Positions 8,936-13,692 of a stretch of 64,000 nucleotides of DNA are shown piece after piece. The notes under the pieces were generated by a model, which was given only the letters and a program-made list of their open reading frames with translations, was not told the origin of the DNA and did not search any database. Both the position numbers and the translations under genes were made by a program. Source of the DNA: Escherichia phage APCEc01; the sequence record NC_029091.1; one strand, 5' to 3'. Position 1 is the first letter of the stretch; the number at the start of each line of letters is the position of its first letter.

Positions 8936-8958
8936 GGAGGACTCCGGTCCTCCTTTTG
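8936..8958 (+). terminator. rho-independent terminator
   Basis: GGAGGAC-TCCG-GTCCTCC hairpin then TTTTGG. Confidence 0.7.
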
Positions 8959-8976
8959 GATAATAAAGGAGTTAAC

Positions 8977-9579
8977 ATGCGAAACCAAAATAATGATATT
9001 GACTCAATGTTCGAAGAGTTCCGAGATAAGGTAAATCCACCTACGTCTTTAGTTGATTCATTACGATATGTTGCAACCGGACGTAAATGGTACTGGTCGT
9101 CTTCTTATGAGACTACTGAGAAAACGGCTAGCCATAGCAGAAAATCTTTATTAGCCCCAGGTATTATGATTCATGATATCGGAGCTATTGCTAAACTAGT
9201 TGCAGACCATGATATTAGATTCACCGATTTCGTTGCTCCTACATGGTCTGTTTGTTGTTTAAACACTGAATGGGAATATATCAGCGAACGCTCTAAAGAT
9301 TATTATGGTTTTAGAGATAAGCTTCTGAGGTCTAACATGTTTTATATTGATACAGAAGTTCTGGTCAATAATAAAAAATACTACTTCACTTTAATCGTCG
9401 ATTCTGAAACTATGTATGAAGGCGGGCCTTTGCTTAAGAGAGTTGATGCTTTAAGTGCTATTGATGCGCTTTATGAAACTATGGTTGTTAGTCCTAATTT
9501 CACTAACAATTTAATCCTTGAGCAATTTATTATGGAATGTAGAGAATATGTCAAAGCCAACCCTGTACATGCCAATTAA
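8977..9579 (+). CDS. hypothetical protein
   Basis: ATG 8977 after AAGGAG; 200 aa; C-terminal region contains EQFIMECR junction motif. Confidence 0.5.
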   Translation: MRNQNNDIDSMFEEFRDKVNPPTSLVDSLRYVATGRKWYWSSSYETTEKTASHSRKSLLAPGIMIHDIGAIAKLVADHDIRFTDFVAPTWSVCCLNTEWEYISERSKDYYGFRDKLLRSNMFYIDTEVLVNNKKYYFTLIVDSETMYEGGPLLKRVDALSAIDALYETMVVSPNFTNNLILEQFIMECREYVKANPVHAN

Positions 9580-9943
9580 GCCCTGGGCATACGAATACAA
9601 GCGTAAATTAATCCCAAATGAAGTACTATTTGGCCCTATTTTAGCTTTAGCATTTTTAATCTTTATGATTATAGGAGCTGTTTTAGATTCCAATAAAGTT
9701 ATATCGTCTGATGCAGCATTTTCATTAATGTTCGTCGCACCACTTATTGTACCGTTTTTATTAATGCCTATTAATTGGGTAGGATATTGGCACCAAGGCC
9801 GTCATCACAGAGCTCGAGTAAGAGAATGGAAAGTTCAGTGCGCAAAAGCCCAAGCTCAGTATGATGAAGCTGTTAAAAAGTATGAATATGAAGAAGCTAT
9901 GGAATTCGTTAAGGAAATAAGATGCAAAAGCCTCAACTCTTAA
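9548..9943 (+). CDS. membrane protein
   Basis: Two hydrophobic segments; start uncertain (ATG 9548 or 9569), overlaps upstream gene end. Confidence 0.4.
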   Translation: MSKPTLYMPIKPWAYEYKRKLIPNEVLFGPILALAFLIFMIIGAVLDSNKVISSDAAFSLMFVAPLIVPFLLMPINWVGYWHQGRHHRARVREWKVQCAKAQAQYDEAVKKYEYEEAMEFVKEIRCKSLNS

Positions 9944-10281
9944 CCGTATGGCCTTCTCTTGGTGAGAACATTCTAATTTTTATTATGAGTATTGGCATGG
10001 GATTTGCCTTTGGATTAGTTGGATTTCTTATTGACGGCGTTGTGTTAGGATTTATAGGGAACACTGGTGGATTCACAGACCAATGGCAGGACTTACGGTA
10101 TACCCAAGCCTTTGCATCCATCGCATCATTTTGTACTGTAGTCTATTTTTACTACGATTTTATAAACCACAACAAGAAAAATAAAAAGGTTTACGCTTCT
10201 CAAATGATTAGTTATAATGAACTCCTAGCTAGACGTGAAAATGAAACAATCGAAAACTTTATTAAGGAATGTAGAAAATGA
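9922..10281 (+). CDS. membrane protein with C-terminal ENFIKECR motif
   Basis: 119 aa, two predicted TM helices; ends ...ETIENFIKECRK overlapping next start (ATGA). Confidence 0.5.
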   Translation: MQKPQLLTVWPSLGENILIFIMSIGMGFAFGLVGFLIDGVVLGFIGNTGGFTDQWQDLRYTQAFASIASFCTVVYFYYDFINHNKKNKKVYASQMISYNELLARRENETIENFIKECRK

Positions 10282-10583
10282 GTAAGATTATTGAAATTAA
10301 AGTACCAGAGTTTAATGATGCCAAATCCGCTTCAGATGCAATTTATAAACTTCTGAATCAAGCTGAACGTATCGAAGAAGAAGCAACAAAGATCGCAGAC
10401 CAATATGCCGTATCATTTTCTGTAGGTGATTATGGTAGCGGTCGTACTTATTATCCTAAGGGTGAAATCGTATCCCAGTGGATGAAAGATGAAATTGAAA
10501 ATAATGGCGGCGATGTTAAGCGTGAAGGTAATGGATACGTTATTACTGAAGGTGCTTGGGTTTCGTCTTCTGCGTTGTGCTAA
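10278..10583 (+). CDS. small protein, paralog family member 1 (C-terminal GAWVSSSALC)
   Basis: 101 aa; first of three tandem ORFs with related C-termini. Confidence 0.5.
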   Translation: MSKIIEIKVPEFNDAKSASDAIYKLLNQAERIEEEATKIADQYAVSFSVGDYGSGRTYYPKGEIVSQWMKDEIENNGGDVKREGNGYVITEGAWVSSSALC

Positions 10584-10592
10584 GGAATCATT

Positions 10593-10865
10593 ATGTCTAA
10601 AGAACAAACCGAACTGGCTGAAGCTGTAGCAAAAATCTATGCAGCTATTGAGGCTGCCAAAGAAATTGCTGATAAACAAAACACAACATTCAACTTGTAC
10701 CCAGCTTATGGTATGGGTGGAACCTATCATTCACCCGGACATCTTAAAGCCGATCTTGAACGTTGTACAAAAAACGGCTATGCTGAATGGGCTGACGTTT
10801 ACCAATACGACTACAACCTGAGCCTCGAAACTGGTGGTTGGGTCGCATCTTCTCACACTTGCTAA
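10593..10865 (+). CDS. small protein, paralog family member 2 (C-terminal GGWVASSHTC)
   Basis: 90 aa; each of the three is preceded by CTAAGGAA RBS. Confidence 0.5.
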   Translation: MSKEQTELAEAVAKIYAAIEAAKEIADKQNTTFNLYPAYGMGGTYHSPGHLKADLERCTKNGYAEWADVYQYDYNLSLETGGWVASSHTC

Positions 10866-10874
10866 GGAAACAAT

Positions 10875-11072
10875 ATGTCTCGTGAATTAGATTGTGCTGT
10901 ACGTACGGCAGTAGCTGCTCTGGAAAACCTGTTCCAAATTGCAACAGAAGAACGCGAAGAAGTTACATTATGGATTGAAGATAACGCAGGTCTGAATCTC
11001 CAGGACGCGATCTCATTATCCCACAATAGTATCACTGTTCAAGGCTGGGTATCATCTAGTTATTCTTGCTAA
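10875..11072 (+). CDS. small protein, paralog family member 3 (C-terminal GWVSSSYSC)
   Basis: 65 aa. Confidence 0.5.
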   Translation: MSRELDCAVRTAVAALENLFQIATEEREEVTLWIEDNAGLNLQDAISLSHNSITVQGWVSSSYSC

Positions 11073-11076
11073 AACA

Positions 11077-11115
11077 GTTTACAACAAGATAGGGCTATGT
11101 TATAGTAGTCCTATC
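11077..11115 (+). promoter_or_regulatory. early promoter (PeSL type)
   Basis: GTTTAC at 11077, TATAGT at 11101, inverted repeat AGGGCTAT / ATAGTCCT. Confidence 0.6.
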
Positions 11116-11134
11116 AAAACAAATGGAGTCCACA

Positions 11135-11374
11135 ATGATTTATTACGAAAGTATCGGAACCAAAGTGGTTAGTAAAACCATTACTCGTGAAAAGTTTGCA
11201 AAGATATTCGATATGCGTTATAAAAAATCTGAACACAAAGGCATCCGATTCGAAGATGCGCACTGTACAATTTGCCCTTATAATGAAGACATAAACGGTA
11301 CAATCGTTCCATTGGTAGAGGCTTCACATGATGACCTCTGGGATGAATATAATATCGCATGTCGTGAAATTTAA
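11135..11374 (+). CDS. hypothetical protein
   Basis: ATG 11135 after GGAG; 79 aa. Confidence 0.45.
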   Translation: MIYYESIGTKVVSKTITREKFAKIFDMRYKKSEHKGIRFEDAHCTICPYNEDINGTIVPLVEASHDDLWDEYNIACREI

Positions 11375-11402
11375 GTTAATGAATTAATCCGAGGAAAATA
11401 TT

Positions 11403-12359
11403 ATGATGTTAGTTATTGGTTCTCGTGCACTTCACTATCACGGTCTTATTGATTCTAGCGCTATTAAAAATAGTGATTGGGACTTTATTGCGGACCAAGG
11501 TTCTTGGAATGCATTCAAAAATCAAATGATGGGTGTATATGTTCACCAAGATAACCCTGATGTCCAAGTTTTCAAATGCTTCCATAATGGACGCGAAACT
11601 CATTTTGAAGCATATATTGTTCCGGCAATCACTAATGTCCGTGAATTAGTCGGTGAACTCACTCCTGAAGATTTCACGTCTTCTTATGACCTTTTAAAAT
11701 ACGCCAAGAAAAATTTGACTAAAGACCGTTTGAACGGGTTTTACTGGGCAACTCCTGAGATATGTCTTGCAATTAAGATGTCTCATCGTTTCAAGAAAAA
11801 TAATCCATTCTTTTTAAAGACTATGAACCATATTCAGTATCTTCGTGGTAAAGGTGTTACACTGAACGATGAACTTACTGAAATTATGCTGAAACGCCAG
11901 AAAGAAACCTTGAATTATGCTCACCCAGTTCTTGACACTTCTAAAAGTGCGTTCTTTAAAGATGACATCTATACATATGACCATGATACTATTCATGAAG
12001 CCATTGCACTAACAGACCGTCCAGCGTATACATTTTATATGAAAGATGGTTCTGAAGTCATGACCTCACGCGAGAAGTTCGAATCATTACCAGAAATGGT
12101 CAAATTGGCCGGCGTATACGAAGAATCATGTGTACTAGCGTTAGAACGTTCTCAGATTCCTAATAACTTTGAAATCCATCCACGTGATAGTTTTATGATG
12201 GCCCTTGAAAAGGTCTGTACATCAATCACATCAGGATGGTTCCGTGAGTTCGCTTGGGAAAATTATAGCAAAGTAGTAAGTATGTACCAAAGCTTAGGAC
12301 ACGACGATTACGTCAAGCGTTTCAAACAAAACTTTCATATGGTAAAACCTTTCAAATAA
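11403..12359 (+). CDS. hypothetical protein (318 aa)
   Basis: Long ORF with GAGGAAAATA RBS; no family recognised. Confidence 0.5.
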   Translation: MMLVIGSRALHYHGLIDSSAIKNSDWDFIADQGSWNAFKNQMMGVYVHQDNPDVQVFKCFHNGRETHFEAYIVPAITNVRELVGELTPEDFTSSYDLLKYAKKNLTKDRLNGFYWATPEICLAIKMSHRFKKNNPFFLKTMNHIQYLRGKGVTLNDELTEIMLKRQKETLNYAHPVLDTSKSAFFKDDIYTYDHDTIHEAIALTDRPAYTFYMKDGSEVMTSREKFESLPEMVKLAGVYEESCVLALERSQIPNNFEIHPRDSFMMALEKVCTSITSGWFREFAWENYSKVVSMYQSLGHDDYVKRFKQNFHMVKPFK

Positions 12360-12371
12360 TTTCACAAAACA

Positions 12372-12410
12372 GTTTACAAGGTCTGTAGTTGTTGATACTA
12401 TAGACCTATC
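12372..12410 (+). promoter_or_regulatory. early promoter (PeSL type)
   Basis: GTTTAC at 12372, TACTAT at 12396, TAGACCTATCAAAACAA box. Confidence 0.6.
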
Positions 12411-12439
12411 AAAACAAATGAGTGAATGGAGATATAAAA

Positions 12440-12640
12440 ATGACTACTTTGAATAAACGTTTCGGTAAAGCTAAACCTGGTTGTGCAGCAGAACGTCGTT
12501 ATGTTTTCGCTCAGTTAGAAGATGTAGAGTATCAGATTAATCAAGTTCACATTACTGGCATCGAGCCTATGTGTGGCCTTGAAGCTCTTCGTGAAGTTCG
12601 TGATGGGTATCGTCGTGACATCGAAGAAATGTCAAAATAA
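12440..12640 (+). CDS. hypothetical small protein
   Basis: ATG 12440 after GGAG; 66 aa. Confidence 0.45.
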   Translation: MTTLNKRFGKAKPGCAAERRYVFAQLEDVEYQINQVHITGIEPMCGLEALREVRDGYRRDIEEMSK

Positions 12641-12641
12641 G

Positions 12642-12680
12642 TGTACAAACTGATAGGACTATGTTATAGTAGTCCTATTA
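12642..12680 (+). promoter_or_regulatory. early promoter (PeSL type)
   Basis: TGTACA -35-like, TATAGT at 12665, inverted repeat TAGGACTA / TAGTCCTA. Confidence 0.55.
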
Positions 12681-12698
12681 AAACATGAGGAGAATATT

Positions 12699-13004
12699 AT
12701 GAAATTAGGCGAAACCAACCGAATTGGTCTTTTAACAATATTTGTATCACTTTTTTACGCAGCTCTTTCTGTTGCAGTATTACAAAAGGCTTACAGTATG
12801 GATGGTGTTCCTGGTTTTGTATTCTTATCGCCGTTTTTGCTATTCGTTGGAGCATTGTTATTATATGCCACGACTAGTTTCGACCATAACGTCTGGGTCA
12901 ATTATAAATGTAAATTGTCTGAAGAAGAACACGCAGAAGCTCGTAAAAAAGCTATTGAATCTACCAATCTAGAAAATTTCATTAAAGAATGTCGAGGAAA
13001 ATAA
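12699..13004 (+). CDS. membrane protein with C-terminal ENFIKECR motif
   Basis: 101 aa, two hydrophobic helices; ends ...NLENFIKECRGK. Confidence 0.5.
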   Translation: MKLGETNRIGLLTIFVSLFYAALSVAVLQKAYSMDGVPGFVFLSPFLLFVGALLLYATTSFDHNVWVNYKCKLSEEEHAEARKKAIESTNLENFIKECRGK

Positions 13005-13005
13005 T

Positions 13006-13692
13006 ATGAATAGTTCTAAAGTGTTTAATAGTCAAGCTCGTGCAGTAGGTGGTTTTGCTCATGCGATTAAAAATGACCAGATTAAAAACGAGCCTATGTT
13101 CTTTAATTGCGATTTGAATTTTGCTTTTGATAACGGCGGTCCAATTACTCGTAGCTTTATCCAAAATCTCCCTGACGATTGGAAAGACTCGGATGTAGTA
13201 TTTGATTCACGAGTCCATATGCTGATGCCTGGTTGGTATCCTGCTATTCCTGGTTATCACCATGATGACGTACCACGCCCGGATATTCCGGTTGGTCAAC
13301 ATTTTATTACTGCAGGACAACCTGACTATGACAATCCTCGCTATTTGTCTGAACATATTCTTGGTCTTGTTAACGCTGATGTGTGTCCTACTCATTTTGC
13401 AACAGGAACTGCAGAGTTCAGTCAGATTCCTGATGGCGAACTTATCTATCGCCAGTGGCACAAAGAAGTCCTCGAAAAAATCGAAAAAGGCGAACTAGAG
13501 AAATGGGAAGCTCCAGATCGTACTCTTCTTCAGTTTGATTGGCAAACATGGCACACTGGTTCTCGTGCAATTAGTAACGGATGGCGTTGGTTCGGACGTG
13601 TATCTCGTAATACAGACCGAGTTAAAAAGATTACCAATGAAATTCGTGTCAATGCCCAAGTTTATCTGGAATTCCCTATGGAAGGATGGTAA
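13006..13692 (+). CDS. hypothetical protein (weak hint of 2OG-Fe(II) oxygenase-like His/Asp motifs)
   Basis: 228 aa; contains HHDD and WHTGSR...GRVSR; assignment tentative. Confidence 0.45.
   Translation: MNSSKVFNSQARAVGGFAHAIKNDQIKNEPMFFNCDLNFAFDNGGPITRSFIQNLPDDWKDSDVVFDSRVHMLMPGWYPAIPGYHHDDVPRPDIPVGQHFITAGQPDYDNPRYLSEHILGLVNADVCPTHFATGTAEFSQIPDGELIYRQWHKEVLEKIEKGELEKWEAPDRTLLQFDWQTWHTGSRAISNGWRWFGRVSRNTDRVKKITNEIRVNAQVYLEFPMEGW

Follow-up and report, generated by a model that had tools for sequence, protein, structure and literature searches.

The array and its family

Three small consecutive open reading frames (ORF1, ORF2 and ORF3), whose products all end in a similar cysteine-containing tail, lie in a 64,000-nucleotide stretch of Escherichia phage APCEc01 (NC_029091.1), which was analysed as a whole and is called the window below. 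They are followed on the same strand by a larger gene for a protein with the domains DUF7277 and DUF7275. The window belongs to an RB69-like T-even phage (Mosigvirus), and the 3-kb stretch spanning the array is 100% identical to Escherichia phage vB_EcoM_SCS57 and 98–99% identical to many Mosigvirus genomes. A preliminary description made from the letters of this DNA had reported a tandem triplet of paralogous genes of 101, 90 and 65 amino acids (aa) with these tails, and their lengths, endings and positions were found to be exact:

10278..10583, plus strand: ORF1, 101 aa, type A, with a YGSGRTYYP loop and the tail GAWVSSSALC, isoelectric point (pI) 4.6
10593..10865, plus strand: ORF2, 90 aa, type B, with a YGMGGTYHSPG loop and the tail GGWVASSHTC, pI 5.0
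10875..11072, plus strand: ORF3, 65 aa, type C, with the tail QGWVSSSYSC, pI 4.2
11403..12359, plus strand: 318-aa DUF7277 and DUF7275 protein (RB69ORF134c), Pfam E-values 3e-79 and 1e-27

Using a six-frame scan of the whole window we found peptides ending in W-x(1-2)-S-S-x(0-3)-C in ORF1–3 only, all adjacent. The tandem genes with a common C-terminal motif are genuine. In annotated relatives the array is located between e.3 and e.2, in the e-to-tRNA accessory region of T-even-type phages, which is transcribed early and in the middle of infection, in agreement with the early-region placement proposed before. The counterparts in RB69 are RB69ORF139c and 138c for ORF1, RB69ORF137c for ORF2 and RB69ORF136c for ORF3. 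In T4, e.2 follows directly after e.3 and the whole segment is absent (T4 67652-68319 compared with window ~10278-13500), and these model phages differ at e.3/e.2 by a clean insertion or deletion. The extra ~3 kb of the RB69-like phages contains the array, the DUF7275 gene and ORF133c-132c. In the RB69 reference record (locus L124, 3735-4041, the counterpart of window 10278-10583) the type A gene is present in two parts, ORF139c (71 aa) and ORF138c (33 aa), resulting from either a frameshift or a sequencing error, and the type B gene is likewise found in two pieces in the records mar005P1, ECCR664 and ST0. Judging from these split copies, the array genes may be dispensable in the laboratory.

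All three genes are under purifying selection. Their orthologue sets span Mosigvirus, Dhakavirus, Marfavirus and Karamvirus-like phages with 54–66% identity between genera within each type, and the ratio of non-synonymous to synonymous substitution rates (dN/dS) against phage JS10 is 0.12, 0.23 and 0.23 for the three genes, with dS near saturation; the span given for these genes is 0.12–0.38. The Ser-Ser-Ser codons of the tail are TCN in some phages and AGY in others, showing that the motif is held at the protein level. Outside equivalent arrays only one ORF with the tail motif was found in 692 kb of other phage DNA (both strands), which excludes chance, and orthologues, dN/dS and codon switching together rule out that ORF1–3 are chance or non-coding reading frames. 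As each type is an old orthologue group, a recent local duplication followed by rapid diversification is also ruled out, and the idea of recently diversified tandem copies had to be abandoned.

To call the three genes paralogues, as the preliminary description did, is correct for two of them. ORF1 and ORF2 are, from their sequences, clear paralogues: both match PHROG 899 (E 1e-22 and 5e-19), their alignment covers the Y-G-x-G-x-T-Y hairpin and the tail, and a single hidden Markov model (alignment A2) recovers both types at every related locus. ORF3 matches another family, PHROG 4882 (E 8e-37), and in the profile–profile comparison with hhalign just its last 11–16 residues align with the ORF1/ORF2 family (53–78% probability). 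In line with this, profile matching detected the PHROG 899 core consisting of helix, Y-G-x-G hairpin and tail in ORF1 and ORF2, but only the tail in ORF3. The three pairwise BLASTP comparisons among ORF1–3 gave E-values of 2e-4, 1e-3 and 3e-4. A lack of similarity beyond the C-terminal decapeptide, named earlier as the result that would speak against paralogy, was thus found for ORF3 but not for ORF1 and ORF2. ORF3, which has an invariant N-terminus (MSRELDCAVRTA) and no YGxG loop, owes its place in the family solely to the tail, the helix-first layout and its position in the array.

Word-indexed searches yielded few relatives, and it was an exhaustive profile search that gave a family of 566 representative clusters (50% identity, E<=1e-3). 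The best 150 of these 566 are 68–175 aa long, and the match extends to the C-terminus in almost all of them. In 136 of 146 representatives cysteine is the last residue and in eight it is followed by one more, and the tail G-x-W-x-[SAP]-S-S-x-x-C with its Cys in the last or penultimate position is present in 144 of the 146 as well as in all three ORFs. Tryptophan at position -7 and serine at position -4 occur in 136/136, serine at position -3 in 133/136. The spacing between Ser and Cys varies across members (SSC, SSxxC, SSSxxxC), many members carry extra degenerate W-x-S-S-x-E-G repeats ahead of the tail, and 88/146 representatives have no other Cys. All listed family members are small and acidic, with a median net charge of -8 for the 146 representatives. 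An AlphaFold2 (AF2) model of ORF1 with a predicted local distance difference test (pLDDT) score of 88.4 shows a long helix (residues 15–43), then a small sheet and a tail strand (93–96). Members of the family are described by an N-terminal helix, a small beta-sheet, mostly with a Y-G-x-G-x-T-Y-Y-P hairpin, and the near-invariant G-x-W-x-S-S-S-x-x-Cys end. The small proteins matched no known family or fold, only unnamed catalogue entries.

Arrays of one to five members are found in unrelated phage groups. Up to five in a row are present in the Dhakavirus JS10, Marfavirus, Karamvirus-like and PEi20-like groups, and the Mosigviruses keep A, B and C. The types can be recognised by the following sequences:

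Type A: YGSGRTYYP
Type B: YGMGGTYYSPG
Type C: MSRELDCAVRTA
Type D: EEYIP...GFWYSSSMSC
Type E: an internal DW-x-x-SSC-YGE and a terminal W-x-x-SSC

Profile comparison with types A and B shows clear homology for type D (97.8% probability across 67 columns) and weaker homology for type E (76%).

The conserved pair with the DUF7275 gene

The small proteins and the DUF7277-DUF7275 protein form one conserved accessory module, which has been inherited and moved jointly across unrelated phages. In the window, 11072 is the last position of the array, and the partner gene begins at 11403 on the same strand, after one 83-aa ORF. When 24 IMG/VR loci were picked by similarity to the small proteins, the DUF7275 gene was found downstream on the same strand in all except L005 (L-numbers are our locus handles), a contig which terminates at the array. 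These loci include Aeromonas CC2-like phages, a 371-kb jumbo contig and small metagenome contigs, and distant family members on the metagenome contigs L036 and L038 show the same arrangement. On a 1.3-kb contig the DUF7275 gene is located immediately 5' of three members. Conversely, 77 of 80 IMG/VR loci picked by DUF7275 similarity carry one to five ORFs with the tail motif within 3.5 kb upstream on the same strand, with a single-copy small gene in 16 of the 80. The pair is also present in Phapecoctavirus SKA64, the Pseudomonas Otagovirus PE09, Acinetobacter Lazarusvirus and ~370-kb jumbo contigs, and outside the T-even group the enzyme gene often follows the last small gene after a gap of 2–90 nucleotides (nt). 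A collection of 185,579 bacterial genomes contained only five homologue loci, all in metagenome bins resembling phage contigs, and the pair was found in all five, at L040 with a degenerate member only; the family is apparently restricted to phages. The array is thus not free-standing but part of a conserved gene pair, which the preliminary description had not noticed.

Streptomyces phage Wakanda (L034) carries a shorter DUF7275 protein (248 aa) with no Cys-tailed gene upstream. After its DUF7275 gene a 99-aa acidic, Trp/Tyr-rich ORF (…YESGFYWSDLDGGYSEYD…, L034 4594-4893) is encoded, which might be a different kind of partner.

Homologues of the partner protein are generally ~310 aa long and mildly acidic (pI 5.5–6.9), and 81/88 retain the two-domain architecture. 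Invariant in the N-terminal domain are G6-S7, D25-x-D27 and E69 (alignments A5 and A6); the C-terminal domain, which is helical, has the invariant residues K125-x-S-H-R129, H174-P, D193-H-D195 with H198, E240-E241, E248-R249 and C272-TSITSGWFR281. The pattern G-S ... [DE]-x-D ... E, with a spacing of 10–17 residues, is conserved across an alignment of 18 N-terminal domains and in 81/88 homologues. Nucleotidyltransferases with the fold of DNA polymerase beta (Pol-beta) are recognised by the signature hG[GS], [DE]h[DE]h and h[DE]h, and this catalytic signature is present in the partner protein. In records of Acinetobacter phages some depositors named the homologue 'putative nucleotidyltransferase', and one homologue gave a very weak match to a tRNA nucleotidyltransferase PHROG (E 0.09). 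The motif suggests that the DUF7277-DUF7275 protein is probably a Pol-beta-type nucleotidyltransferase-like enzyme. A reading of its 'HHHG' and 'KMSHR' stretches as the HIGH and KMSKS motifs of class I synthetase-like proteins was rejected, since distant homologues do not keep the His residues.

The most conserved motif of the partner, C272-TSITSGW (window 12216-12239), is the tail W-x-S-S-x-x-x-C in reversed order with an equal spacing from W to C, as seen in comparison with the tails at 10554-10580, 10836-10862 and 11043-11069. This likeness could be a coincidence or a hint of an antiparallel pairing that would join two invariant cysteines.

Expression signals and neighbouring genes

The following further features were located around the three ORFs:

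10190..10218, plus strand: promoter-like site TTTACG-17-TATAAT inside e.3, just upstream of ORF1 (a consensus match only)
10262..10269, plus strand: Shine-Dalgarno-like TTAAGGAA before ORF1, 8 nt ahead of its ATG
10580..10587, plus strand: CTAAGGAA, the Shine-Dalgarno sequence of ORF2, with the TAA stop of ORF1 (10581-10583) inside
10862..10869, plus strand: CTAAGGAA, the Shine-Dalgarno sequence of ORF3, with the TAA stop of ORF2 (10863-10865) inside
11123-11374: 83-aa ORF between the array and the DUF7275 gene, PHROG 3723, with a Cys/His-rich stretch (HCTICP...ACREI)

The ribosome-binding site (RBS) said to be common to the three genes is shared by ORF2 and ORF3 only, as ORF1 has a different one, and the ATG of ORF1 overlaps the TGA stop of e.3 (ATGA, 10278-10281). 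That the tail is kept only through its overlap with the next RBS is ruled out, since no RBS is present downstream of the ORF3 end, distant members retain the tail and synonymous sites vary. For the equivalent of the site at 10190-10218, the annotation of phage SA79RD gives a T4-type middle promoter. Right after ORF3 our own scan shows a promoter-like site of the T4 early type (GTTTACA-17-TATAGT with TG, 11078-11106), where the annotation of SA79RD has a terminator. At the very start of the type C gene, ~23 nt (ATGTCTCGTGAATTAGATTGTGC, window 10875-10897) are identical at the DNA level, including synonymous sites, in six phages from different genera (the window, L003, L004, L016, L018 and L019), and the remainder of the gene shows many synonymous changes. 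This suggests that the start of the type C gene is under a constraint at the nucleic acid level, by translation initiation, an RNA element or a recombination site, in addition to the protein constraint.

The PHROG 3723 ORF is present in most of the T-even-type loci checked and absent from the distant loci bearing the module. Upstream of the array, the e.5-, e.4- and e.3-like genes (8956-9579, 9518-9943 and 9922-10281) encode proteins, several of them apparently membrane proteins, with the common C-terminal motif F-[IV]-x-E-[CI]-R (FIMECREY..., FVKEIRCK... and FIKECRK). Runs of genes of this type occur at related loci, for example at L015 5904-7315 (FIDDCRRARK, FITECRGK, FISRCRVKR), and from their sequences they appear to form another tandem family that is marked by a conserved C-terminus. 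The e.4 neighbour is labelled 'sulfurtransferase' in phage JK42, a label found in no other record examined.

Possible function and comparison with known systems

As the best explanation, to which we assign a probability of roughly 0.55, ORF1–3 are expressed and selected genes for small, very acidic cytoplasmic proteins which would form, together with the DUF7277-DUF7275 protein, an enzyme-plus-partners module having the cysteine tail as its working part. We infer the physical partnership, the enzyme class and the tail chemistry: such a module would consist of one Pol-beta-type nucleotidyltransferase-like enzyme and one to five distinct small proteins serving as its protein substrates, carriers or subunits, with an exposed Ser-Ser...Cys tail presenting a thiol near the C-terminus. 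The tail could be the site of a modification made by the enzyme, for example an O-nucleotidylylation of the invariant serines, or else function as a reactive thiol arm offered to the enzyme. Since the Cys is followed by another residue in a few members and the motif is repeated internally in type E, thiol or serine chemistry is likelier than chemistry at the terminal carboxylate. Several partner genes beside one enzyme gene are also the usual layout of enzyme-plus-substrate clusters.

Some observations weigh against this explanation. The evidence for the nucleotidyltransferase assignment is a short motif, and HMMER searches against PDB sequences as well as Pfam, NCBIfam and PADLOC returned no nucleotidyltransferase family, the partner's own DUFs being the sole matches of the full-length, N-domain and consensus queries. 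A single-sequence AF2 model of the 318-aa protein was unusable (pLDDT 36), and in the ORF1 model W-V-S-S belongs to a beta-strand of the fold; by this prediction the tail motif may partly have a structural role instead of being a free arm. DUF7275 is found with no small gene beside it at L064, L086/L089 and in phage Wakanda, L037, a 3-kb contig, has a small gene without DUF7275, and in T-even relatives one to three unrelated small ORFs are located between the array and the enzyme gene.

A bolder and more tentative idea is that the module represents a new phage protein-modification system, in which a nucleotidyltransferase-like enzyme would act on up to five carriers at their Ser-Ser...Cys tail and produce a new post-translational mark or an intermediate linked through a thiol. 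Such a product might then serve large lytic phages with Gram-negative hosts early in infection, for host takeover or counter-defence. The small proteins may have a role in host takeover or anti-defence, with which the preliminary description had associated such arrays. Such a role would also follow if they were free-standing inhibitors of host proteins with one target per paralogue, having the DUF7275 gene as neighbour only because both belong to a common mobile accessory cassette. Small and very acidic (pI 4.2–5.0) early or middle proteins encoded in a plastic region that is absent from T4 are typical of phage inhibitors, types A–E are each conserved and hence non-redundant, and the split of type A in RB69 suggests laboratory dispensability. 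We consider this explanation unlikely, however, as the adjacency to the enzyme gene persists across otherwise dissimilar phage groups, always on the same strand and often with gaps of tens of bases, and as a tail invariant over 566 clusters favours one common partner over many host targets. Moreover, neither a sequence nor a fold match to a characterised inhibitor from known anti-defence or host-takeover families was obtained.

Two further explanations keep the DUF7275 protein as partner and assign another task to the small proteins. They might act like antitoxins that regulate or neutralise a nucleotidyltransferase-like effector whose target would be nucleic acid of the host, for example tRNA ends, and whose active site would be plugged or capped by the Cys tail until required. 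The gene order with small, acidic proteins encoded upstream in tight spacing resembles toxin–antitoxin pairs, AbiEii/MenT and MNT-type nucleotidyltransferases are established to act in such pairs, the module adjoins the tRNA cluster in T-even relatives, and the very weak match to the tRNA nucleotidyltransferase PHROG would fit as well. We regard this as improbable, as a mildly acidic partner would not complement the small proteins in charge, a set of up to five conserved antitoxins that differ from each other would be unusual for one effector, searches with PADLOC and Pfam gave no AbiEii, MenT, MNT or HEPN match, and no R-x(4-6)-H motif of HEPN proteins was seen by eye among the invariant partner residues. 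Alternatively, the small proteins might be thiol- or metal-handling subunits of a homo- or hetero-oligomer whose chains would each contribute their terminal Cys to a common metal, cluster or redox relay, a site that the DUF7275 protein would use or load. This would agree with the single invariant Cys that 144/146 representatives have as last or penultimate residue and with the invariant Ser three residues ahead of it, as (S/T)-x-x-C is established to activate thiols in peroxiredoxins. The likewise invariant Trp and Tyr, the invariant Cys of the partner within its reversed tail-like motif of equal spacing, and several non-redundant paralogues, which would suit a hetero-oligomer, point in the same direction. 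Nevertheless, a single Cys from each chain makes a weak set of ligands, the small proteins have no other conserved metal ligands and single-copy phages exist (16/80 loci), which makes such subunits very improbable.

Coming back to the enzyme-plus-partners module, it can be compared with several known systems. In citrate lyase (CitD/CitX) and malonate decarboxylase (MdcC/MdcG) a small acidic carrier of ~100 aa is loaded at an essential Ser through a phosphodiester by an enzyme with nucleotidyltransferase fold that is encoded nearby, and thereby obtains its working thiol. The module resembles them by analogy in having small acidic proteins encoded beside a nucleotidyltransferase-like gene, but no sequence or fold similarity was found, its thiol would be an encoded terminal Cys instead of an arm derived from coenzyme A, and it has up to five carriers per enzyme and no genes for prosthetic-group precursors. 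The precursor clusters of ribosomally synthesised and post-translationally modified peptides (RiPPs), and those of cofactor precursors such as PqqA and MftA, offer a similar analogy: tandem small genes neighbour a single enzyme gene, and a conserved N-terminal helix precedes a conserved extreme C-terminus, at which the chemistry would take place. In contrast to such leader–core peptides, the proteins of the module are predicted to be folded domains of 65–100 aa (pLDDT 88 for ORF1), and their tail is invariant and not variable. Neither a RiPP maturation enzyme (LanB/C/M, YcaO, radical S-adenosylmethionine, LanD flavoprotein) nor a protease or exporter was found in a Pfam scan of seven flanking proteins or in the annotation of relatives. 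A lanthionine or aminovinyl-cysteine (AviCys) precursor was ruled out by the variable Ser-Cys spacing, the non-terminal or internal Cys of some members and the lack of maturation enzymes. Membership of the module in a carrier/loading-enzyme or precursor-plus-enzyme class is therefore not supported.

The ~300-aa GS...DxD protein encoded right after small acidic partners is also reminiscent of MNT-HEPN and AbiEi/AbiEii (MenT-type) pairs, from which the module differs not only by the missing profile match and HEPN motif mentioned above but also by a large protein that is not basic, by several partner paralogues and by its occurrence in lytic phage genomes. The combination of a beta-grasp fold, a C-terminal Gly-Gly and an E1-like adenylating partner, typical of ubiquitin-like and sulphur-carrier proteins such as ThiS and MoaD, was not found. 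PHROG 899, PHROG 4882 and DUF7277/DUF7275 match the proteins of the module strongly, yet they are catalogue entries without a function, which record neither the C-terminal Cys motif nor the link between the small genes and DUF7275. A search of the available library of papers gave no mention of DUF7277/DUF7275, PHROG 899/4882 or the RB69 ORFs and nothing relevant by topic, and as far as can be told the definition of the tail motif, the size of the family and the gene linkage are previously undescribed.

In summary, T-even-type phages are among the best-studied viruses and yet contain a module without a described function, fold or literature, which ranges from RB69-like phages, Dhakavirus and Karamvirus-like phages to rV5-like, Acinetobacter, Aeromonas, Pseudomonas and jumbo phages. 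A near-invariant terminal motif over hundreds of diverged clusters together with a near-constant pairing with one enzyme gene is the signature of a specific chemistry, and T4 without and RB69 with the module are a natural pair for a comparison of gain and loss. Should the module indeed be a new protein modification or counter-defence device, it would represent a new class in phage–host biochemistry beside the systems compared above; if not, an annotation that can guide functional work has still been gained for DUF7275, DUF7277, PHROG 899 and PHROG 4882.

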